UHGV virus genome: UHGV-1754446
From: a virus
DNA length: 20,188 nucleotides
Direction: 5' to 3' (one strand)
In this document: positions 12,181 through 20,188 of the stretch, one piece after another
How positions within the stretch are numbered: the first letter of the stretch is position 1
Layout of the letters: each line of letters begins with the position of its first letter
Position numbers and translations under genes: made by a program
Notes under the pieces: model-generated
Database searches by the model: none
What the model was told of the DNA's origin: nothing
The model's input: the letters and a program-made list of their open reading frames with translations, nothing else

Positions 12181-12927
12181 TCACTGCGACGCGCACTCGC
12201 TTTCAAGCTCGTTCCAATCCTCGTCGGTAATGTATTTGCGGCATTCAGGATTAAGCTTCAACGCCTCATAGCCGACACGGTTGAGGAAACGCTCGCTCGT
12301 CAGCTTCTTCTCTATGATACGGAAGGCGAGCATGGCGTTGGCGTCCTTGTTCAGGTCTATGGTTATCCCGTCCTCGGTCTTGCATATCATGTCCGCAGCC
12401 TGCTCAAAATGGTAGAGGGTGCGTGACAGCCGCGCAGGATTCATGTATTTGTCAAAATGAATGCCGGGCGCGGCTTCGTCAGCCGTCTTTATCTGCACAT
12501 CGTAAAGATGTACCGCGTATGCCAGAAGATTGCGGGCGGTCTCGACATAGGACTTAAGCTCCGTTTCGGTCTGCCTGTACTTGTCGAGCAGCGACTTTAT
12601 GGAGAAGCGCAGGATGTCGACATGCGGCTGTATGTCCTCCTCCACTGTGTCAAGATAGTCATAGAAGAGCTGCGTGCGGTCTCCGAAGTTCTGGATGTGA
12701 AGCTTCTCGTAGGCGTAGTACGCCCTCTCCGCTTCCCTGATGTGACGCTTCAGAGTGAAACGGTAGTACGGTGTCTTCCGTACTCTCTCTATGGCGTCGA
12801 ACATTGTCTTGCCCGCCACTGTGTTGGCGGCTCCCATAACAAGGTTGACGAGTGAGTTGAGACGCTCGAACACCTCCATCGCGCGCTGGCTGCTCACTGC
12901 CGTAGCCTGTCGTACGTATGCTGTCAT
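12181..12927 (-). CDS. Hypothetical protein (248 aa)
   Basis: Long ORF in the operon, with an ATGA overlap to the downstream gene at 12924-12927. No motif recognised. Confidence 0.75.
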   Translation of the reverse strand: MTAYVRQATAVSSQRAMEVFERLNSLVNLVMGAANTVAGKTMFDAIERVRKTPYYRFTLKRHIREAERAYYAYEKLHIQNFGDRTQLFYDYLDTVEEDIQPHVDILRFSIKSLLDKYRQTETELKSYVETARNLLAYAVHLYDVQIKTADEAAPGIHFDKYMNPARLSRTLYHFEQAADMICKTEDGITIDLNKDANAMLAFRIIEKKLTSERFLNRVGYEALKLNPECRKYITDEDWNELESECASQ

Positions 12928-13184
12928 TGCTGACCTCCTTTCTTCAAATCATTCAAAGCCTTGTCATTGCAGCTTTTACAAAACAATTTATTGAGAGTTC
13001 CTTTTAGCATGACTAAATAGACATCATCGTCATCCTTGAACTTGCGGTTGCAATTAAAACAAAGCCTTTGAACATAAAGCCCTATACTTTCTCTCGACTT
13101 GCGGAACTGCCAGAATTTCAAGAATGGCTTATCAACAGCGTTTAGTACCTCGTATTCACGTTTGGTGATTTTCACTACTTTCAT
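12924..13184 (-). CDS. Small Zn-ribbon-like protein (CxxC ... CxxC)
   Basis: 86 aa with CFNCNRK ... CKSCND; ATGA-type overlap with neighbours on both sides. Confidence 0.65.
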   Translation of the reverse strand: MKVVKITKREYEVLNAVDKPFLKFWQFRKSRESIGLYVQRLCFNCNRKFKDDDDVYLVMLKGTLNKLFCKSCNDKALNDLKKGGQQ

Positions 13185-13555
13185 TTTATACCTCCTTTCA
13201 GTAGCTCTGGGTTGTCGTGGATGTTGCCGATTATCGTTGCTTTATCGGTAGGAAGGAAGCCTAATCTTTCAATACCTCCGATAAAAGAGCATTCAGAATC
13301 ACTATATTCCACATCCACAATATCTCCGTCTGGAAATTGAATAATATCCCCTTCGTAAATCTCCTTCCCCTTTTTATCATACAAGCCTGTGAACTGGCTT
13401 ACGGTGGAGGGGGCGATTTCTCGTTTCCACACGGCATTAGAGCTGTCGCTCTTTTCGAGAATGTTGCAGTCTCCGTCCGCCCATATTAAAAGCGAACCAT
13501 AGCACCACTCATCGTTTGCAAGGCGTTTGCCTCTGAACTTGATTGCTCGTTTCAT
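13181..13555 (-). CDS. YopX-family phage protein
   Basis: N-terminal IKFRGKRLANDEWCYGSL and C-terminal IGNIHDNPELL match the YopX signature (KFR.W ... YG ... GNI[HY][DE]NPELL). Confidence 0.8.
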   Translation of the reverse strand: MKRAIKFRGKRLANDEWCYGSLLIWADGDCNILEKSDSSNAVWKREIAPSTVSQFTGLYDKKGKEIYEGDIIQFPDGDIVDVEYSDSECSFIGGIERLGFLPTDKATIIGNIHDNPELLKGGIK

Positions 13556-13863
13556 GACCGCACCTCCTTTCCGTCGGACAGAAGGTCGTCAAGATAGGCG
13601 AACTTGTCAACCTCTCCCCATAATCGTTCAAACGACAGGTCGCGCAGGTCTTTGTAGACAGCGGCATTCCCGTTCTTGAATAAGACGAGTGTCTTGCGCT
13701 TAGGTTGGCAAGATACAGTGCCGTTGTGCCACACGGCGTTGATGCGCCAGTTGGCACCATCTATAAACCCATGTTCATAATACGGCACGTATTTTGGATT
13801 GAAGATGCTGTTGTCAATAACACAACTTTCTGTTGCCGCCTTTTCAATCTGTTCTCTTGTCAT
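13552..13863 (-). CDS. Hypothetical protein (103 aa)
   Basis: ORF coupled to the downstream YopX gene by a 4-nt overlap. No motif recognised. Confidence 0.7.
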   Translation of the reverse strand: MTREQIEKAATESCVIDNSIFNPKYVPYYEHGFIDGANWRINAVWHNGTVSCQPKRKTLVLFKNGNAAVYKDLRDLSFERLWGEVDKFAYLDDLLSDGKEVRS

Positions 13864-13896: not shown

Positions 13897-14061
13897 TTAT
13901 CTTGTGATTTTAGAGGAAATTTTCCTTGTATTTCCTTTGTTTTCCTTTGCCAAACACTCATTGCCACATCTTCTGCCCACGTCGTACTTATCGCACCATC
14001 CGTCTCCGTAGAAGCCTTCGTTAATGAAGTGGATACATGAGCCGCAGTGTCTTGCTTTCAT
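13897..14061 (-). CDS. Small Cys-rich protein (54 aa, putative Zn-binding), coupled to the PAPS-reductase-like gene
   Basis: Not in the ORF track (below 60 aa). Own translation: MKARHCGSCIHFINEGFYGDGWCDKYDVGRRCGNECLAKENKGNTRKISSKITR. Its ATG overlaps the stop of 14058..14975 (ATGA). Confidence 0.4.
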   Translation of the reverse strand: MKARHCGSCIHFINEGFYGDGWCDKYDVGRRCGNECLAKENKGNTRKISSKITR

Positions 14062-14975
14062 TTTTCGTCGTCTTTAAATTCAAATTTCTGTTGCAGGAAC
14101 TCGTCAGCGTAGAACTGCTTGTAGCTCTTGTCGCTTATCCACCACCTAAAGCCTGTTTCAGCGTCGTTGAAATTGTGGTCGATATATCCGTTGTCTATCA
14201 GCCATTGGATTGTCTTTATCCAATTGCGTTTGACGTGCGGCCAGCGTTTAGCATCTTCCTTCTTTATCCGTGCGTTCGACATAGGGCAACAGATGCAGCC
14301 AATGCGTGTATAACCCTCGTCGTAGAGTTCGCAGTGTGGTATGCCGTTCATGTTAAGGAACTCCCACACGTCGCGCTCCGTCCAATAGATTATGGGCGAT
14401 ACAAGGATTTTGTCCTTACCGCCGACACACGCAACCATGCTCTCCTCATGTTCGCTCCATTGGTCAAAGGTTTCCTCATTGCGCTTGCCCTTTATCTCTG
14501 TGGATATTTCCTCACGTTTTGCACGCCGTGCGCTTTCTTCTTTTCTCACACCGATAAGTGTCACCTTGCCAACGCCTGACGTTTCCTTGAACTCGGCACA
14601 ACACCAACGCAAAGTCCTTGTCGGCAAGATGTGCTTTTTCTTCGCCATTTCGTAAATGCTCATCCGTGGTTTGATTAGCTCCACATCGGGGTATTGCGTC
14701 TTGACGAAGCGGATGACTTCGGGCGGGTCTATGCTCGTAAGGTTCATGTGAGCCTTGAAGCGGACACCGGCCAGCTTTGCGACATGGTAGAGGCATTGGC
14801 TGTCCTTGCCGCCACTGAACGCAAGGTAAAAGCCGTTTTCGGGGTCGAGGCGCAACGCCATTTTCTCCGACTTCCGCAAAAGTTCGACGGAGTGTTCCAG
14901 CTTCCTTGCAAGCGGACGGCTTACCTTTGACATTACGGTGTCGTGGTCAAGCAGTATTATTTCACACGCTTTCAT
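14058..14975 (-). CDS. PP-loop ATP-pyrophosphatase of the PAPS-reductase / TtcA-like (adenine-nucleotide alpha-hydrolase) superfamily
   Basis: PP-loop motif FYLAFSGGKDSQCLYHVA (SGGxDS), plus Cys clusters RWCCAEF and GCICCP that could ligate Fe-S or Zn, as in DndC/TtcA/CysH-like enzymes. I cannot assign the exact subfamily without a profile search. Confidence 0.85.
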   Translation of the reverse strand: MKACEIILLDHDTVMSKVSRPLARKLEHSVELLRKSEKMALRLDPENGFYLAFSGGKDSQCLYHVAKLAGVRFKAHMNLTSIDPPEVIRFVKTQYPDVELIKPRMSIYEMAKKKHILPTRTLRWCCAEFKETSGVGKVTLIGVRKEESARRAKREEISTEIKGKRNEETFDQWSEHEESMVACVGGKDKILVSPIIYWTERDVWEFLNMNGIPHCELYDEGYTRIGCICCPMSNARIKKEDAKRWPHVKRNWIKTIQWLIDNGYIDHNFNDAETGFRWWISDKSYKQFYADEFLQQKFEFKDDEK

Positions 14976-15100
14976 TTTGCCTTGTCTTTAAGTTTGAATA
15001 TAAATTCCATCAGTTGTTTGTTCTGCTGGCGGTACCTGTCAACCTCGGCTTGCAGGAAGTCAATCTCGTTGTGGTACGCCTCACGCTCAAAGTCAGTCAT
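14972..15100 (-). CDS. Small helical protein (42 aa), translationally coupled
   Basis: Own translation: MTDFEREAYHNEIDFLQAEVDRYRQQNKQLMEFIFKLKDKAK. Its stop overlaps the ATG of the PAPS-reductase-like gene. Confidence 0.35.
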   Translation of the reverse strand: MTDFEREAYHNEIDFLQAEVDRYRQQNKQLMEFIFKLKDKAK

Positions 15101-15253: not shown

Positions 15254-16155
15254 TGCTTCATATTTTTAAGTTTGTAACTATTCTCATTAAGCCACTTTTG
15301 GAAATACCATAACTGACCGCATCCGCCACCTATATCGTCTTGCCCTGCCGGGTTAAATACTCTCGTATTAAAACCTACGTCATTCATCTTTGAATTAAAG
15401 TCACGGATTAAGTCAAGTTGTCGCTGTATTGATGAATGTACACTTTCATCCTTTTCGCAAATAACAGACAAAGTGACCTCCCATATATCAGGGTTAAATA
15501 ATTCAGAGAGCCTCATAGCATCTTCCATATCATTATTCCCGACATGTACGCAATAATTAAAGAAAGGCTTTCTTCCGACATAAGAAGCCCAAAACTCACC
15601 CGTAGAAGCTATTTGCCGAAGTGTTGACGTATTCGTTGCTATAAGTTTCTTCCTTTTTTCATCTGTACTTTCATGTACTGAAAATTGAAGACCTACTTTA
15701 TCTATTTCTTTCGATAGTGCAATAAAATCAGACATGTATAAATACATCATGTGAGGGGCAGAAGTGCTTACAAGAAGTTGTGCGTTTGGATATTTCACAT
15801 GTAGACTTTCTATTGCAGGCTGCAATGCCGAGTAGTTGTAAAAAGGCTCTCCCATGCTCATAAACATAATTTGGAACTTTTTAATGTCATCAGTGCGGCA
15901 ATCAATAGTAGATAATGCCCCATCAATCTGTTGTATTATTTCGTCAGTAGAAAGATTTCTGACAAAAAATTTGCCTGTTCCGCAGAAAGAACATCCAACT
16001 GGACAACCGCTTTGAACCGAACAACATATAACTGTCCTTTTTTTGTATTCTCCATATCTATAAAGAACAGTTTCAGCAATAGCATTTGGCTTGTCCCACT
16101 CAAACACGAATTTCTTTACATTCGTATCACTTGATTCAAATACTTTTGTTTTCAT
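15250..16155 (-). CDS. Radical-SAM methyltransferase of the RlmN/Cfr family (N-terminally minimal form)
   Basis: RTVICCSVQSGCPVGCSFCGTGKFFVRNLSTDEIIQQI aligns with the E. coli RlmN region [38 protein letters not shown] (CxxxCxxC plus the upstream mechanistic Cys). MFMSMGEP matches VMMGMGEP, STSAP matches STSG, FSVHESTDE matches ISLHAPNDE, and the C-terminal DDIGGGCGQL matches DDIDAACGQL (second catalytic Cys). At 301 aa it lacks the ~80-aa N-terminal domain of RlmN. Confidence 0.88.
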   Translation of the reverse strand: MKTKVFESSDTNVKKFVFEWDKPNAIAETVLYRYGEYKKRTVICCSVQSGCPVGCSFCGTGKFFVRNLSTDEIIQQIDGALSTIDCRTDDIKKFQIMFMSMGEPFYNYSALQPAIESLHVKYPNAQLLVSTSAPHMMYLYMSDFIALSKEIDKVGLQFSVHESTDEKRKKLIATNTSTLRQIASTGEFWASYVGRKPFFNYCVHVGNNDMEDAMRLSELFNPDIWEVTLSVICEKDESVHSSIQRQLDLIRDFNSKMNDVGFNTRVFNPAGQDDIGGGCGQLWYFQKWLNENSYKLKNMKQ

Positions 16156-16361
16156 TTGCCGTATGTTTTTGTTTTCTTGGGTTTGTAACTATCGGTTTCT
16201 TCGTCCCACTCCACGCAGTCGGGGCAGTAGAGTTTGCCGTCGATTTCTTCCCAATCGCACATCTTCGCCATATACCTTGCCATACCTTCACTAAATTCAT
16301 AGCCATGCTTACTTCCGCACCCGTCGCACACGGCTTGGTACATCGTCACTTTCTGTTTCAT
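16152..16361 (-). CDS. Small Zn-ribbon protein (CDGCGS ... CPDC)
   Basis: 69 aa with two CxxC pairs; its stop overlaps the ATG of the radical-SAM gene. Confidence 0.65.
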   Translation of the reverse strand: MKQKVTMYQAVCDGCGSKHGYEFSEGMARYMAKMCDWEEIDGKLYCPDCVEWDEETDSYKPKKTKTYGK

Positions 16362-16363
16362 AA

Positions 16364-16645
16364 TCAGTAATATCTTATTACATCTTGATTCATTAAAGCT
16401 TTCATAAAAGACTCCTTTTCTTCATCTGTGGCTTTCCTTACATTCGCACCCCAACAGAAGTTTCCCCATCCCGTACTTTTCTTGATTATACCGTCATTCC
16501 ATCCAATCAAAATGCCGTATCCGTCACCATCTACATATCCGTTATGGATGAATACCCTTTGATTTTCGGGGTGGTATTTCGCAGATTCTTCATTTGTTGG
16601 AATTCCATATAGGAACTCACCCACGTTATATTCACTTCTTTTCAT
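16364..16645 (-). CDS. Hypothetical protein (93 aa)
   Basis: ORF within the coupled operon. No motif recognised. Confidence 0.65.
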   Translation of the reverse strand: MKRSEYNVGEFLYGIPTNEESAKYHPENQRVFIHNGYVDGDGYGILIGWNDGIIKKSTGWGNFCWGANVRKATDEEKESFMKALMNQDVIRYY

Positions 16646-16848
16646 ATCTTTACATATTGGCTACACGCCTGTTGGTTGCACTTAACTTTCTGTAAACAAT
16701 TGAACGTGCGGTTACTCTTGCGCACACGGCAGTAGGATATTACTTTGCTTCCACATTCCCACCGCTGGCGGTGAATACAAGTGCGGCACGTTTCTAAGGT
16801 TGATTCTTGCGGCTGAATGGTGTCAGCATTGCTAAATAAATCACTCAT
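16642..16848 (-). CDS. Small Cys-rich protein (68 aa)
   Basis: CRTCIHRQRWECGSKVISYCRVRK ... C...C; 4-nt overlaps with both neighbours. Confidence 0.55.
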   Translation of the reverse strand: MSDLFSNADTIQPQESTLETCRTCIHRQRWECGSKVISYCRVRKSNRTFNCLQKVKCNQQACSQYVKI

Positions 16849-17666
16849 AGCAGATCCTTTGCTTCTTCAATCAGGTCACCAAATGTGTCTAAGAACTGGT
16901 CGCGGACTTCGGGGGTGGGGAAAGCCAATATCCGGCTCACCGTCCAATAAGAGTTCTTTTCTTTCTTATTTGCTTTGTAACTAATGCAATATTTCATTTT
17001 ATCATCCGTCCAATACGGCTTCCACCCCAATTGCTTCCACCAGGCGTTGCGGCAGACGAGAAGCTGGCAGAGGGCGAGCATGGGCTTGCCGAGACCTTGC
17101 GGCAACATGTTTCTGTCGCTATCACCAAACAGACGTCCGTCATCGGACAATTCGCTTATACTGCATTTATAAACTTCGCTATCTTCTTCTATCAATTCCA
17201 CGTCATTGATGCTACACAGGCATTTCAGCCACGTCTTGGGCAACCCTTTCTTCTTCTCTTTCAGCACGATGTTGCCTCGTTCGTCCAGGTGGTCGAACTC
17301 CCAGCCGTCGGGGACTGTAATTGTCTTTTCGTTTGTTTCCATATCTTCTTTGTTTTGTTGTTTAACTTCGATGTCTACGGTGTTGTTGACTGCGTTGTAG
17401 TATGCGAACGGTTCTTTGGACAGGACAACAGGGAATTTCACTCCTGCATACCGCTGCACAATGTGGTCGTAAAGAGGGTAAGGGTCGCCGACGGGTTCGA
17501 GCTTCTTGCATTTCGCTTTCACCCAACAATCTCTATTTCCATAGAAACTTGCACAATTTAAATCTTTAAATGATGCACAATCTTTGCAATAATCATACAT
17601 ATCATCTTTCACGCACTGGTACCACTCTCCGTTGTGCTCAAATATCTCTCCTATCTTCCGTTCCAT
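16845..17666 (-). CDS. Hypothetical protein with Cys-rich N-terminus (273 aa)
   Basis: Long ORF; N-terminus CKDCASFKDLNCASFYGNRDCWVKAKC suggests a metal-binding module. No family recognised. Confidence 0.75.
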   Translation of the reverse strand: MERKIGEIFEHNGEWYQCVKDDMYDYCKDCASFKDLNCASFYGNRDCWVKAKCKKLEPVGDPYPLYDHIVQRYAGVKFPVVLSKEPFAYYNAVNNTVDIEVKQQNKEDMETNEKTITVPDGWEFDHLDERGNIVLKEKKKGLPKTWLKCLCSINDVELIEEDSEVYKCSISELSDDGRLFGDSDRNMLPQGLGKPMLALCQLLVCRNAWWKQLGWKPYWTDDKMKYCISYKANKKEKNSYWTVSRILAFPTPEVRDQFLDTFGDLIEEAKDLL

Positions 17667-17668
17667 AG

Positions 17669-18223
17669 CTATTCTTGTTCTTGTTCGTTGTTTTCTTGCT
17701 TGTCATCTTCCTCTTCCTCATTGTCGGACATGAAGTAGGCCACGTCGTCAAAGGGGATGTTCTTGCGCTCCTTTTCGATTTTCACCGCCAAAACATTTTT
17801 GAGGATGAAGTCTTTGAGGTCGGTGTAGTCGGAGGGGATGTAGCCGTTTTCCAAAATACGGATGTAAGCGTCGTCAATGTACTTGTCGATGTCGATGCGC
17901 GGGTGTTCCTCGGCAAGCTCTTTCTTGGCTCGGATAAGGCCGAGCAGGAGGGCATTCTTCTTTGCGCGGTAAGCCTTGTTCTTGGATATGTAGCGTATGT
18001 CTGCTATCTCGCGGTGCGACTCGATGGCGCACTCTATCCTCGCCTCGGATATGGCGCATTTGACACCGCTCTTCTTTTGGAGGTAATAGTGCCAAATTCC
18101 CCTGTCCTTATGCAGGCTTCGGGTGAGCAGCCTCGCACAGGCTATCCGTCCGTTGTGGAAGCGGACGAACAGGTGGTGAGGAAAGTCGCTGTCCGTGAAG
18201 ACTTGTGCCTTTAATTGTTTCAT
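17669..18223 (-). CDS. Hypothetical protein with acidic C-terminal tail (184 aa)
   Basis: Long ORF; the C-terminus SDNEEEEDDKQENNEQEQE is highly acidic. No family recognised. Confidence 0.75.
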   Translation of the reverse strand: MKQLKAQVFTDSDFPHHLFVRFHNGRIACARLLTRSLHKDRGIWHYYLQKKSGVKCAISEARIECAIESHREIADIRYISKNKAYRAKKNALLLGLIRAKKELAEEHPRIDIDKYIDDAYIRILENGYIPSDYTDLKDFILKNVLAVKIEKERKNIPFDDVAYFMSDNEEEEDDKQENNEQEQE

Positions 18224-18225
18224 AG

Positions 18226-18657
18226 CTATTCTGCCTTTGAGTTTTTGAAAATGTCACGTATCTGCCCGGCTACCTTTTCGGCTGCCTCACGGGTGCGGAA
18301 GTAGTTGCCTACGTCATGCAACACCATGTCAGACCGTTCTCCATAGTCCTTATATTGGAGGGTTGTAAAGTCATTGTTCACAATGTAATACAGACCACCT
18401 TTCTCCGCCCTCCACCTCGGCAAGTCCTCGATGCACTTCTTCTCGGCGTTCCACCGCTTGCCCTGTTTGGCGAGAGCGTCGAAGAGGCGTCGCTTCTCTG
18501 CTTCGGTGGCGGGGTGGTAATAGTCGGTATACCCCCAACCTTCCTCACTGAAAACCGTTTGAAGACGTTGCCCGTGAAGTGCTGCGTAAGTCATAATGCC
18601 TCCAATCTTATTAGTCCCGGCATAGATGGCGATTGTATCCATACCGTTAAATTTCAC
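18226..18657 (-). CDS. Hypothetical protein (138-143 aa)
   Basis: Long ORF; start is the GTG at 18657 or the ATG at 18642. No motif recognised. Confidence 0.7.
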   Translation of the reverse strand: MKFNGMDTIAIYAGTNKIGGIMTYAALHGQRLQTVFSEEGWGYTDYYHPATEAEKRRLFDALAKQGKRWNAEKKCIEDLPRWRAEKGGLYYIVNNDFTTLQYKDYGERSDMVLHDVGNYFRTREAAEKVAGQIRDIFKNSKAE

Positions 18658-18808
18658 CGTCTTTCGGCATGTAGCTCTTTACCAATCCAACGGTGACATT
18701 GAGTGTACCGTTGTCAACTTTAGCGTCAATTGTTCCCACTCTCGCGCCTTTCGGCAGCGTAATCCTGTATGTCTTTTTCATTTTCACTATTCTTTTAATT
18801 TACATTAA

Positions 18809-18946
18809 CTAACTATCCCTACCCCACTTCCACGCGGATATAAGGGCTCGGTAGACCATCTGCTTCTCATCCCTGTCGCAGAAGTCGAACGATGCCGCCA
18901 GCTTAACGAGCCACAAGGAAGACGATGGGTGTGCTGTCTGTGTCAT
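18809..18946 (-). CDS. Small ORF (45 aa) with Shine-Dalgarno
   Basis: GGGAGGA lies 9 nt upstream of the ATG at 18946; translation MTQTAHPSSSLWLVKLAASFDFCDRDEKQMVYRALISAWKWGRDS; below the ORF-track cutoff. Confidence 0.25.
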   Translation of the reverse strand: MTQTAHPSSSLWLVKLAASFDFCDRDEKQMVYRALISAWKWGRDS

Positions 18947-18951
18947 GTCAA

Positions 18952-19587
18952 TCAGTCCTCCCTCACTTCTATAGGCTCACCGTCAACTAACTTATACCAA
19001 GTGTCGGACTTTATTGTCTCTCCGTCTACCTTGAATGCCTTGACATCCTTTATAGGATACGTTTCTCCGTTCCAACTGTCACGTTCCGTAAGGACTATCC
19101 AGCAGCCGAGAGCACCTTTCGCCTTGCTGCCCTTGCCTGTCACTATGGCAACAGAATCCTTACCATCAACACTTGCGGCGGAGCAGTCGCCCGTGTTGGT
19201 GGCGGCTGACCAGTCGCCCGTGTTCGATTGTTTATTATCATCCCATTTTACATGGTCCATGATGAACTTGACTCCTGCTTTAATCAGTCCCTGTAAGCCT
19301 ATTTCGGCTTTGATTTTCAAATGGGTACAACATATTTTATCAGGTTTAGACTTGTCAAAATCACCGCTGCCTTCAACTTCACAAAACCTGTTCGGTGTTC
19401 CCGTTTCGTCGCACGGAGCGTAAAAGCCCAGCACATCCATAGGGCATTCGCAATAATGGAAACCGGTATTGCAGGCGACCGCCTTGTCTGTTGAATACTC
19501 CTTGCCGACTTCGTACTGGAAGCCGCGGCACTTCAGGTCTTTGTCAAAACCTTTATAGCCATGAATCGTTTCTGTCTCTTTTTTCAT
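18952..19587 (-). CDS. Hypothetical phage protein with Cys-rich N-terminal domain and TGD[WC]SAA repeats
   Basis: 211 aa; N-terminus YKGFDKDLKCRGFQYEVGKEY ... CNTGFHYCECP; C-terminal half with repeated NTGDWSAA / NTGDCSAA and Gly/Lys-rich stretches. No family recognised. Confidence 0.75.
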   Translation of the reverse strand: MKKETETIHGYKGFDKDLKCRGFQYEVGKEYSTDKAVACNTGFHYCECPMDVLGFYAPCDETGTPNRFCEVEGSGDFDKSKPDKICCTHLKIKAEIGLQGLIKAGVKFIMDHVKWDDNKQSNTGDWSAATNTGDCSAASVDGKDSVAIVTGKGSKAKGALGCWIVLTERDSWNGETYPIKDVKAFKVDGETIKSDTWYKLVDGEPIEVRED

Positions 19588-19599
19588 AGTTTTGAATTT

Positions 19600-19782
19600 T
19601 CATTTGTTACGCAACTGTATGAAGCCGTCGGCTTCGTATTTTTTCAGTTCGGCAAGTCCGTCATCCGTAACGGTGACGATATTCTCTCCGTTTACCGTCA
19701 TGCCTTCTACGATGCCGAACCGCTGCCGGATATTGTCTATGATGCGGGCGTTCTCCGTCACCCAGTAGATTGTAATTCTCAT
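19600..19782 (-). CDS. Small protein (60 aa)
   Basis: ATG 19782 is preceded by AGGAG at 6-nt spacing. The longer ORF-track version from 19890 has an Arg-rich, non-coding-looking N-terminus and overlaps the upstream gene. Confidence 0.5.
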   Translation of the reverse strand: MRITIYWVTENARIIDNIRQRFGIVEGMTVNGENIVTVTDDGLAELKKYEADGFIQLRNK

Positions 19783-19870
19783 ATTGACTCCTGTTCTTCG
19801 TTTTCTACTTGCGCTATCGCGCGGAATATCTCGTAAACAACCTGTGGCACCATTGCGTTGCCCAACGCCT

Positions 19871-20188
19871 TTATGGATTCTGCCCGCCATCGAGGAAAGG
19901 TGATACCAGCCAGTCTGCCGGGAAACCCATCATCTCCTGTACAAACAAGGGATTGAGTCGGGAAGTCGCGCCATCGGCTTGCGGGCAGTTCTTCATAATT
20001 TCCGCCACAAGCCCGTGCCTGTTCTTCTGTGACGGTGGGAATGTGGAGTTTTTCCCGTTGGTCGCCTCCGGTGTCGGAAGCAGTCCGTGGAAATCCATGT
20101 AATCCATCAGACCGTTCGGTCTTGTCTCCCCGTTCGCCCTGCTGTGGAACGTGTCGCCGCCCGCCGCCTTCAAATCCTTTACCCTCCC
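19871..20188 (-). CDS. 3' end of a larger gene continuing beyond the window; C-terminus resembles DNA methyltransferase tails
   Basis: The frame is open from the window edge (20188) down to the stop at 19871; the ORF-track start at 20173 is only an internal TTG. The motifs HGLLPTPEATNGKN and NPLFVQEMMGFPADW resemble the C-terminal region of phage DNA methyltransferases (cf. the GFP motif of C5-MTase motif IX). This is from memory of motifs, with the N-terminal catalytic motifs outside the window. Confidence 0.55.
   Translation of the reverse strand, partial: GRVKDLKAAGGDTFHSRANGETRPNGLMDYMDFHGLLPTPEATNGKNSTFPPSQKNRHGLVAEIMKNCPQADGATSRLNPLFVQEMMGFPADWLVSPFLDGGQNP

Follow-up and report, generated by a model that had tools for sequence, protein, structure and literature searches.

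Identical stop/start junctions on both sides of a single gene in a Bacteroides-type phage as probable recombination joints

Results

The window, by which we mean the whole 20,188-nt stretch of DNA analysed here, carries three adjacent minus-strand genes, designated A, B and C (Table 1). Gene A is frameshifted in the window and its intact 3' portion forms an open reading frame at 18226-18657. As the original prediction stated, an identical 12-nt sequence, AGAATAGCTATG, lies at two consecutive gene boundaries; it is present exactly twice in the window, both times on the minus strand and in register with TAG-CT-ATG. Read on that strand, each copy consists of an A, the last sense codon GAA (Glu), the stop codon TAG, the spacer CT and the start codon ATG, and the two copies are spaced 557 bp apart and enclose exactly one gene, B. 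Both upstream genes do end in glutamate followed by the stop, gene A with ...NSKAE and gene B with ...EQEQE. The palindrome, given earlier as TAGCTA, is present but was understated; it is the 8-bp ATAGCTAT, which is confined in the window to the two 12-mer sites (0.26 expected).

The repeat reaches 16 nt if one mismatch is allowed. A lineage-specific synonymous change in gene A (GCT to GCA) produced the A that opens the left copy; every other A tail compared reads GCT, which puts the older repeat at 11 nt. GAAT within the repeat is native to A tails and B tails alike, and only about 7 nt of the repeat (AGCT plus ATG) are non-native to both.

Table 1. Coordinates of genes and junction repeats in the window
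Feature	Position	Strand	Remarks
Gene A	18226..18781	-	186-190 aa in relatives; split here by a 5-nt deletion near 18651
Left copy of 12-nt direct repeat AGAATAGCTATG	18221..18232	-	GAA + TAG stop of gene A, spacer CT, ATG of gene B
Gene B	17669..18223	-	184 aa; conserved small phage protein; cargo of the 557-bp indel unit
Right copy of 12-nt direct repeat AGAATAGCTATG	17664..17675	-	GAA + TAG stop of gene B, spacer CT, ATG of gene C
Gene C	16845..17666	-	273 aa, large family; start is the second 12-mer ATG
Left copy of 11-nt exact repeat AAAATGAAAGC	14968..14978	-	Junction upstream of PAPS-reductase gene; inside a ~32-nt imperfect repeat
PAPS-reductase gene	14058-14975	-	Between the 11-nt junction repeats
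Right copy of 11-nt exact repeat AAAATGAAAGC	14054..14064	-	Junction downstream of PAPS-reductase gene

The protein encoded by gene B is rich in beta structure in its N-terminal half; its C-terminal half is helical, and its tail is acidic. Twelve homologues were found, at 49-99% amino acid identity, and at 50% identity the homologues form only 19 clusters among 1.84 billion representatives; searches of IMG/VR, JGI metagenome and GTDB data with B returned one locus each and no more. Gene B occurs in at least five distinct neighbourhoods. None of the three genes matched Pfam, NCBIfam or PADLOC, a PDB sequence search found nothing for B, and the region 16000-20188 had no megablast match among INPHARED phages. 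The G+C content of B (0.506) is not atypical of its surroundings, gene A being at 0.494, gene C at 0.457 and the gene cluster at 0.459.

Comparison with relatives revealed that gene B is variably present. In four contigs of a close relative from three further samples (L003 and L046-L048), A is joined directly to C and B is missing exactly at the repeat. The flanks in these contigs are 84-94% identical to the window and the A-C join reads gctGAATAGGTATGgaacgg; the single junction copy in L003, GAATAGGTATG, differs from the window repeat at 1 of 11 nt. A contig from an independent sample, L045, is 95.7% identical to the window over 2.9 kb and contains A-B-C with both 12-mers, which indicates that the arrangement is real and stable. 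An assembly artefact was rejected because the arrangement was seen again in this independent run and because a 12-nt repeat is below the k-mer sizes of assemblers.

The original prediction had hung on recurrence of the motif at junctions of related genomes, and on this count the outcome was mixed. The 12-mer was recovered at the same two junctions of L045, and an 11-mer of it once, at an unrelated junction of L020, but it is absent from all other junctions of the 53 loci examined. The 21-nt B-C junction word that contains the 12-mer was found in IMG/VR in the window contig alone, and the orthologous junction words in relatives read TGAC-ATG, TGACTATG, TGACAATG and TAGGTATG. The 12-mer is lineage-specific, and is neither a conserved motif nor a population-wide linker.

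The left and right junctions of B covary within genomes across five lineages. The pairs (left/right) are TAGCT/TAGCT in the window and L045, TGAC-/TGACT in L004, TGAC-/TGACA in L031 and TGACA/TGACT in L007, and in L043 the two sides are alike at 27 of 28 nt. Pairing the junctions of the same genome gave the maximal total score, which was reached by 2 of 120 permutations (p = 0.017) in a set of lineages that are few and partly dependent, L004 and L031 having a common left junction. The B-C junction is GAATGACTATG in L004 and L042 and GACTGACTATG in L007, and B-less A-C junctions of matching types occur as TAGGT (L003), TGACT (L049) and TGACA (L012).

The backbone tree takes the form ((window, L003-type), L049), in which the sister and the outgroup are both without B. 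The interior of B is 98.5% identical to that of L004, a phage with a backbone only ~76% identical and a different gene order. A recent gain of B is favoured, given its absence from both sister and outgroup and its near identity in so diverged a phage. The tract shared with L004 takes in the last ~54 nt of gene A (the A tail, ...QIRDIFKNSKAE and the stop), which moves together with B in L004, and the first ~56 nt of gene C (the C head, MERKIGEIFE.NGEWYQC), whose nucleotide sequence is conserved across many different preceding genes. With these flanks, B is 95.7% identical in L004, whereas identity elsewhere is ~76%. The identical tract shared with L045 covers 18427-17636. Both tracts run beyond the 12-mers, and the 12-mers were for this reason rejected as the endpoints of the latest exchange.

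Gene B was also found at another junction. In L043, a Bacteroides sp. MAG, its neighbors are two other genes, X and Y, and on either side of it stands ACAAACCGAAAAAGAAAGAAT[G/A]ATATGA, a 28-nt repeat whose copies agree at 27 of 28 nt. The tail of B, ..NNEQEQE in other lineages, is replaced in L043 by KPKKKE, the sequence with which X-family proteins natively end; seven X-tail codons are copied onto B. That B in L043 ends in a native X-family tail indicates that the target junction was duplicated. For an empty X-Y site, a pattern scan of IMG/VR gave zero matches, and L044 and L050-L053 carry other genes after X. Tandem X paralogues were rejected as a source of the L043 repeat, none being present in L050 or L043.

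A parallel case is provided by the PAPS-reductase gene of the window, which is bracketed by an 11-nt junction repeat of its own (Table 1). In L045 this gene is precisely absent and the repeat is single-copy, as in an empty site. This looks like a deletion in L045, and by the same token L003 may simply have lost B. Both junction repeat pairs of the window (2/2; B and PAPS reductase) mark genes that are variable among relatives.

The original prediction had also allowed for coincidence. By itself, a 12-mer repeat is unremarkable in 20 kb, and the weight rests on the comparative evidence; the window contains 26 pairs of exact direct repeats 12 nt or longer, compared to 9.2 +/- 2.8 in shuffles, an abundance that would suit a chance origin. 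Coincidence under constraint would mean that stop/start junctions draw on few sequences (Glu-rich tails, TAG or TGA, an NT spacer and ATG) and that the repeat is uninvolved in the gain or loss of B. TGA accounts for 14 of the 20 stops and 2-nt spacers or 4-nt overlaps predominate, so the junction sequence space is small. The 12-mer pair ranks first for in-register match among the 496 junction pairs in the window, and other pairs share 9-11 nt in register, with matches of 11, 10 and 10 present because A-rich sequence and ATGAAA are common to many junctions. C-type genes are usually preceded by a context of stop, NT and ATG, the GAAT of the repeat is native to both tails, and the L020 junction mentioned above shares the 11-mer GAATAGCTATG. 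Judged on the window alone, chance identity of two junctions has a probability of perhaps a few percent, which is non-negligible. Set against this, the boundaries of the L003-type indel coincide exactly with the repeat, the two B junctions covary across lineages, and the 28-nt repeat of L043 includes seven codons of a foreign tail. Moreover, by local in-register score within the minus-strand cluster, the best 2 of 190 junction pairs, of which only 10% are adjacent pairs, are both adjacent and each flanks a single indel gene, B or PAPS reductase. Coincidence is therefore disfavoured by these comparisons, and we regard it as unlikely.

Discussion

The 12-mer pair is best read as a common trace of phage gene shuffling by short-homology recombination, and not as a special signal, because the two copies exactly bracket a small accessory gene without which close relatives occur. 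We think it likely that a single-gene cassette was gained or lost at a tight stop/start junction of a temperate Bacteroides-type phage and that the two 12-mers are the joints of this recombination. Among the three options originally offered, the recombination linker came closest. The two copies are the exact edges of a gene cassette that is present or absent, and the pattern is repeated both where B lies in a different genome and around a second gene of the window. There is no conserved linker, however, since the words of relatives differ and the 12-mer does not delimit the clearly recent tracts of exchange.

The repeats, the exact presence or absence of B, the covariation of its two junctions, the copied X tail in L043 and the PAPS-reductase parallel are direct observations; whether B was gained or lost, by what molecular mechanism, and that the genes are translationally coupled, we infer. 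An insertion that duplicated the target junction is the favoured course. In the common ancestor of the lineages that led to the window and to L003, A would have been joined to C by one junction, ...GAA TAG CT ATG GAACGG..., and the body of B would then have been acquired from a co-resident phage via two short-homology crossovers or template switches, one in ATG(A/G)AAC and the other, farther upstream in the recipient, in (C/A)AGAAT. This stagger would leave a copy of the recipient junction at either end of B. B would start at the left-copy ATG and end at the right-copy stop, while A would retain its stop and C its start and immediate upstream context. Selection may filter random events to this in-register form, because only in-register products keep all three genes translatable. 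The alternative course is loss between the repeats in the relative; such a deletion would leave a single junction as in L003, and may equally be the origin of L003.

Movement directed by the B protein would be a different matter. B would then be, or derive from, a free-standing homing-endonuclease-like gene that targets the stop/start junctions of B-less phages and is copied in during double-strand-break repair, about 50 nt of either flank being co-converted. The only PHROGs match of B, a weak one to PHROG 452 'endonuclease' (E = 0.0038), points this way, as do the NUMOD4/HNH proteins that are frequent among its sub-threshold Foldseek matches, the 95.7% identity of B with its ~54- and ~56-nt flanks in an otherwise ~76% identical phage, and the presence of a bona fide I-HmuI-like HNH gene close by in the L003 contig. 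However, none of the residues expected of an HNH or GIY-YIG motif (His, Asn, Cys) is conserved in B, the 12-sequence B alignment has no invariant His or Cys, and hhalign of B against the HNH_3 protein of L013 gave a probability of 0.2%. The B model is moderate (pLDDT 69) and had no significant structural match, its best Foldseek BFVD E-value being 0.013 with several HNH/NUMOD4 names among the weak matches, and none of the 19 representative clusters shows a nuclease-domain fusion. Homing also predicts donor-type junctions rather than a duplicated recipient junction. Identification of B as an HNH or homing endonuclease was rejected as unproven on the strength of the catalytic residues, the hhalign result and the domain fusions, and protein-directed mobility seems to us very improbable.

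We give slightly less credence again to B as the cargo of a junction-targeting selfish cassette that repeatedly inserts, with exact placement, at stop/start junctions in operons of Bacteroides phages by a dedicated mechanism. Such a mechanism might be directed by B itself, as a catalytically degenerate NUMOD4/I-HmuI-like DNA-binding protein, or a circular B-plus-junction intermediate. If this were true, the cassette would duplicate its target junction and borrow its start codon on the left and its stop codon on the right, and would represent a type of mobile element without transposase, integrase or inverted repeats.

At both junctions TAG-CT-ATG places the stop and the start within a few nucleotides on the same strand, and no stable RNA structure was found at either (z = -0.09 and 0.30). 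From this spacing and lack of structure, each copy probably permits termination-reinitiation. The stop/spacer/start architecture is common, stop plus 2 nt plus ATG being frequent upstream of C-type genes, and to this extent the proposal of a conserved re-initiation context stands, but the word itself is not conserved. For the word or its palindrome ATAGCTAT to be a selected translational signal, it would have to be needed for termination-reinitiation or bound by a factor and to have been fixed independently twice. The register that both copies share with stop and start, the freedom of both junctions from competing RNA structure and the restriction of the palindrome to these two sites are what such a signal would predict, yet we consider it extremely unlikely: orthologous junctions read otherwise (TGAC-ATG, TGACTATG, TGACAATG or TAGGTATG), TAGGT in L003 disrupts the palindrome, the window has no tRNA or suppressor gene, and overlaps make up 10 of the cluster's 19 junctions, nine being 4 nt long and one 20 nt, while a 2-nt spacer is present in only 3, both 12-mer junctions included. 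Suppressor tRNA or TAG recoding was likewise rejected, as there are no tRNAs in the window and TGA and ATGA overlaps are in normal use.

Recombination at the junctions, the preferred reading, needs no new biology, and the same structure is already described in mycobacteriophages. In LRRHood (genes 43-46), a 1.35-kb segment lies between 29-bp repeats at the 3' end of a gene, and in Island3 the C-terminus of the gene preceding gene 68 recurs at the end of gene 68 (Pope et al. 2011, PLoS One 6:e16329, PMC3029335). In those mosaic indels as in the window, an extra gene in one phage is exactly absent from a close relative, and direct repeats stand at both ends of the segment and are single-copy in the relative (here L003). 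The bracketing repeat likewise takes in the 3' end of the preceding gene, GAA and the stop being common to both in the window, and the C-terminus of B in L043 copies that of its upstream neighbor just as in Island3 gp68. Intramolecular deletion and intermolecular acquisition are ambiguous in both systems. The present case differs in that its repeat is 11-12 nt rather than about 50 and 29 bp, in that the repeat covers the entire stop-spacer-start and supplies a start codon for the cargo and for the displaced gene, in that one cargo gene (B) shows the pattern at two different junctions, and in its host clade of Bacteroides-type gut phages.

Exchange of modules via short conserved flanks, and RecET recombination at 5-13 bp, are cited by Martinsohn, Radman and Petit 2008 (PMC2327257), who also discuss exchange at short conserved boundaries or linkers and relaxed (homeologous) recombination in lambdoid phages. 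Similar to such modular exchange, the A tail (~54 nt) and the C head (~56 nt) are common to an otherwise diverged phage, and GAATGACTATGG together with the C head is seen behind three different upstream genes. In contrast to it, the 12-mer is lineage-specific rather than a population-wide linker. Among the genes of the window and L013 that were scanned against Pfam, no recombinase of a single-strand annealing family (Red-beta, RecT or Erf-type) was recognised, another point of difference.

Morons, reportedly described by Juhala et al. 2000, offer a further comparison. They too (also summarised in PMC3029335) are single accessory genes of one genome, the two genes that border them standing directly side by side in a relative that exactly lacks the insert. 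However, with 2-nt spacers on either side, B leaves no room for a promoter and terminator of its own; its G+C content is typical of its neighbors, and it is embedded in an operon and probably translated by coupling. A promoter consensus scan, with a consensus that is not Bacteroides-type, gave 4 promoter-like sites against 2.2 expected, none of them placed for B, and terminator signals around B did not exceed chance. Target-site duplication by a transposable element would also leave an inserted segment flanked by direct repeats of the target, but B has neither a transposase domain nor inverted repeats at its ends, the duplicated length is variable (about 11-12 nt in the window versus about 24-28 nt in L043), and the repeat here gives the cargo coding and start/stop function. 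Moron, transposon and integron-like readings were rejected because promoter and terminator signals did not exceed chance and there were no inverted repeats.

The locus provides a base-resolved case, in uncultured gut (Bacteroides-type) phages, of single genes being added to or removed from tightly packed operons with their neighbors left unbroken. The joint is the stop/start junction itself, which is left on both sides of the cargo, and the case shows that similarity which translation signals impose can serve as the microhomology for viable recombination. Re-initiation context and recombination linker, which had been posed as alternatives, are linked by this junction microhomology. Paired junction repeats may offer a cheap annotation cue for phage accessory genes that were recently gained or are easily lost.

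A gene-sized cassette at a stop/start junction

The 12-mer AGAATAGCTATG occurs exactly twice in the window, at the boundaries between three consecutive minus-strand genes, A, B and C, and either copy is composed of A + GAA + TAG + CT + ATG. Because each copy parses in this way, the original prediction of a TAG stop, CT and an ATG start behind genes ending in glutamate was right; the palindrome it reported, TAGCTA, is present, but its full length is 8 bp (ATAGCTAT), a sequence confined within the window to the two 12-mer sites. In the window, 26 pairs of direct repeats are 12 nt or longer, compared with 9.2 ± 2.8 in shuffles, and a lone 12-nt repeat means little. When junctions were aligned by start codon, the 12-mer pair ranked first among 496 junction pairs; other pairs matched over 11, 10 and 10 nt too, since A-rich sequence and ATGAAA are common to many junctions. 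By local in-register score within the minus-strand cluster, the top two of 190 pairs were both adjacent, each flanking a single gene (i.e., B and the PAPS-reductase gene).

Features of the window discussed in the text
Feature	Position	Strand	Description
Left 12-mer copy	18232-18221	minus	...AAAGGC AGAATAGCTATG AAACAA...
Right 12-mer copy	17675-17664	minus	...GAACA AGAATAGCTATG GAACGG...
Gene A, intact 3' ORF	18226-18657	minus	product ends NSKAE-stop (ORF map)
Gene B	17669-18223	minus	184 aa, product ends EQEQE-stop (ORF map)
Gene C	16845-17666	minus	273 aa (ORF map)
ORF antisense to all of B	17675-18214	plus	179 codons, TTG start
Tract common to window and L004	18277-17610		668 bp, 95.7% identity; B, ~54 nt of A, ~56 nt of C
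69-aa gene (MKQKVTMY...)	16152-16361	minus	by eye looks like an X-family member (cf. L043 2784-2999)
PAPS-reductase gene	14058-14975	minus	
Exact 11-nt AAAATGAAAGC	14968-14978, 14054-14064		flanks PAPS-reductase gene (minus-strand sense)
Genes with LKGG-type tails	13181-13555, 12924-13184	minus	codons spell AAAGGAGGT just before next ATG
Gene without LKGG-type tail	13552-13863	minus	weaker GAAAGGAGGT at its end

In the related contig 3300045988_148138 (L003/L013), A and C are 84-94% identical to those of the window, and A ends ...AAAGGCTGAATAGGTATGGAACGG..., leading directly into C; B is absent, and the boundary lies inside the repeat. The B-less junction of L003 recurs unchanged in L046-L048, three more contigs that come from three other sequencing runs, and both 12-mers, with the order A-B-C, are found in L045, a contig of yet another run with 95.7% identity over 2.9 kb. 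These separate occurrences rule out an assembly artefact and show that the 557-bp repeat unit is a present/absent cassette.

Relative to L045 and L003, gene A of the window is split by a 5-nt deletion (AGTTG) near 18651 (window ~18647-18781), leaving its N-terminal 44 codons in a different frame from the rest. Possible explanations are a pseudogene, a programmed event and a sequencing error. The ORF antisense to B is treated as mechanical, because conservation backs the minus-strand frame.

Gene B and its neighbourhoods

The 12 homologues of B are 49-99% identical and share many invariant residues. Between the window and the related locus L031, the interior of B differs by 13.8% of nucleotides and the whole protein by just 7% of residues, which indicates purifying selection. 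B is rare, with 19 clusters among 1.84 billion representatives, every one stand-alone; it is a real, mobile gene found in at least five distinct neighbourhoods.

Neighbours and junction words of B, and B-less junctions, in related loci
Locus	Upstream	Upstream junction	Downstream	Downstream junction
Window, L045	A	GAATAGCTATG	C	GAATAGCTATG
L004-L006 (words of L004)	DUF551 gene with only last 14 aa of A	GAATGAC-ATG	HP1_YO09-like gene with only C head	GAATGACTATG
L031	A	GAATGAC-ATG	two small genes, then C	GAATGACAATG
L007	unrelated 67-aa gene	GCTGACAATG	C	GACTGACTATG
L042	non-coding DNA near TnpB-like fragment		C	
L043	X		Y	
Distant homologues	unrelated		unrelated	
L003 type, no B	A	GAATAGGTATG (A/C)	C	
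L049, no B	A	GAATGACTATG (A/C)	C	
L012, no B	A	GAATGACAATG (A/C)	C	

The two junctions around B are more alike within one genome than between genomes; in a permutation test, same-genome pairing gave the maximum total score, reached by only 2 of 120 permutations, and a B-less counterpart exists for each junction type. The proposed recurrence of the 12-mer in relatives was borne out at the same two junctions of L045, but the word is absent from the orthologous junctions of the other relatives, so a conserved motif is rejected. No IMG/VR contig besides the window's contains the 21-nt B/C junction word that includes the 12-mer. One further 11-mer GAATAGCTATG lies at a stop/start junction in an unrelated IMG/VR phage (L020 148-158, minus), behind a perfect AAGGAGG and before a gene of the Y family, to which the gene after B in L043 belongs; the small sequence space of junctions explains this better than descent does.

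The interior of B in the window is 100% identical to that of L045 and 98.5% to that of L004, and the remaining genes common to the window and L004 are ~76% identical and differently ordered. The tract shared with L004 runs past the 12-mers, so the latest exchanges did not have their limits at these repeats.

The opening ~26 nt of C (ATGGAACGNAAGATAGGAGA, MERKIGEI...) show nucleotide-level conservation across 18 IMG/VR loci (window 17610-17666; L015-L030, L054-L059), behind unrelated genes and usually at a junction of stop + NT + ATG. Short proteins made of the C head only occur in L012 and L031, and GAATGACTATGG plus the C head stands behind three different upstream genes. Upstream of B in L042, a 1.5-kb contig, positions 1-690 hold a fragment similar to the zinc-ribbon end of a TnpB/IS605-type protein and then non-coding DNA, the latter in place of a coupled upstream gene.

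Other bracketed genes and genome setting

The clearest case of B bracketed by a junction repeat is L043, a Bacteroides sp. MAG locus, in which the end of X (ACAAACCGAAAAAGAAAGAATGATATGA) and the end of B (ACAAACCGAAAAAGAAAGAATAATATGA) match at 27 of 28 nt. Its B has exchanged the usual acidic tail for ...KPKKKE, which is native to the tails of the large X family, so the right-hand repeat is a copy of the target junction; tandem X paralogues as another origin of the repeat were not seen. The Cys-rich X family has 144 homologues at E up to 0.001, and its lysine-rich tails differ from contig to contig with different genes next, making another variable junction.

The 11-nt repeats around the PAPS-reductase gene sit within a ~32-nt imperfect repeat, and in L045 the gene is precisely missing, leaving a single junction copy. 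In L003, too, the gene is linked to its downstream neighbour, and it has a tail native to its family, so a deletion is the simplest account of the L045 state. L003 carries two extra genes at the junction upstream of the PAPS-reductase gene. Given these differences, junctions of the minus-strand cluster are hot spots for gene-sized indels.

The window is matched by IMG/VR contig 3300045988_136180, and no near match was found among deposited phages. Its plus-strand genes encode a collagen-repeat protein, an amidase (lysin) and an HTH + M78 regulator; the minus strand holds small early-type genes packed tightly into one cluster, including DUF7666, PAPS reductase and a radical-SAM protein (match below the Pfam curated cut-off). 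Cluster junctions are overlaps in 10 of 19 cases (nine of 4 nt, one of 20 nt) and 2-nt spacers in three of 19. Judged by LKGG-type tails, we take some cluster genes to be putatively YopX-like; the tail codons spell Shine-Dalgarno-like sequences embedded in the C-terminus of the preceding gene, and tails like those of the window are present in L043. An uncultured Bacteroides sp. MAG holds a B homologue of 93% amino acid identity, so the host is probably Bacteroides or a relative.

The DUF7666 gene contains a 27-nt tandem repeat (9-aa unit), with 8.9 copies in L049 (1-239) versus a single unit in the window (~19175-19224). The ends of several independent contigs (IMG/VR 136180, L045, L046, L047) fall at window ~19207-19224, pointing to a variable repeat that breaks assemblies. 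L013 4940-5452 (= L003 1852-2364) is an I-HmuI-like HNH homing endonuclease gene (NUMOD4 + HNH_3 + NUMOD-like), complete and lying directly upstream of the start of homology to the window (window 19835); it is probably a further indel between these phages.

Probable origin of the repeated junction

Our conclusion is that the 12-mers mark the joints at which recombination added or removed a gene cassette. In the lineage of the window, the favoured event is a gain of B with duplication of the recipient A/C junction, because only the window and L003 clade has the TAG-type junction, and because the sister and the outgroup L049 are B-less, so that a single gain is a more parsimonious account than two losses. 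In addition, had a TGAC-type donor contributed B by an ordinary double crossover in the A tail and C head, the junctions would now be of the donor type. The observed structure would follow from staggered short-homology crossovers or template switches, one at ATG(A/G)AAC and the other at AGAAT, and only in-register products would keep the stop of A, provide B with both start and stop, and keep the start context of C. Translational coupling at TAG-CT-ATG is probable, judging by the spacing and a lack of RNA structure.

Alternatively, L003 possibly lost B through recombination between the repeats, using the same joints; in T4 and T7, deletion between direct repeats of such size is well documented. 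RecET-type recombination at 5-13 bp and exchange via short conserved flanks are cited in PMC2327257.

That B is the cargo of a dedicated junction-targeting cassette seems very improbable, and its identity as a homing endonuclease is not demonstrated (all matches sub-threshold, catalytic residues unconserved, hhalign failing). A transposon is rejected on the absence of inverted repeats and transposase and on the variable duplication length; the differing repeat lengths of L043 and the window argue against a transposase-like mechanism. A moron is dismissed, as B has ordinary composition and no room around it for a promoter or terminator.

In mycobacteriophages, the C-terminal 18 residues of Island3 gene 68 repeat those of the upstream gene, and a 1.35-kb segment of LRRHood has 29-bp flanking repeats at a gene 3' end, with deletion versus acquisition left uncertain (Pope et al. 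2011, PMC3029335). The structure at B is the same, including this ambiguity; however, the window's repeat is shorter and covers the entire stop/start junction, and B, as cargo, shows the pattern at one more site as well. The present case is a new example, in gut Bacteroides-type phages, of a structure already described in mycobacteriophages.
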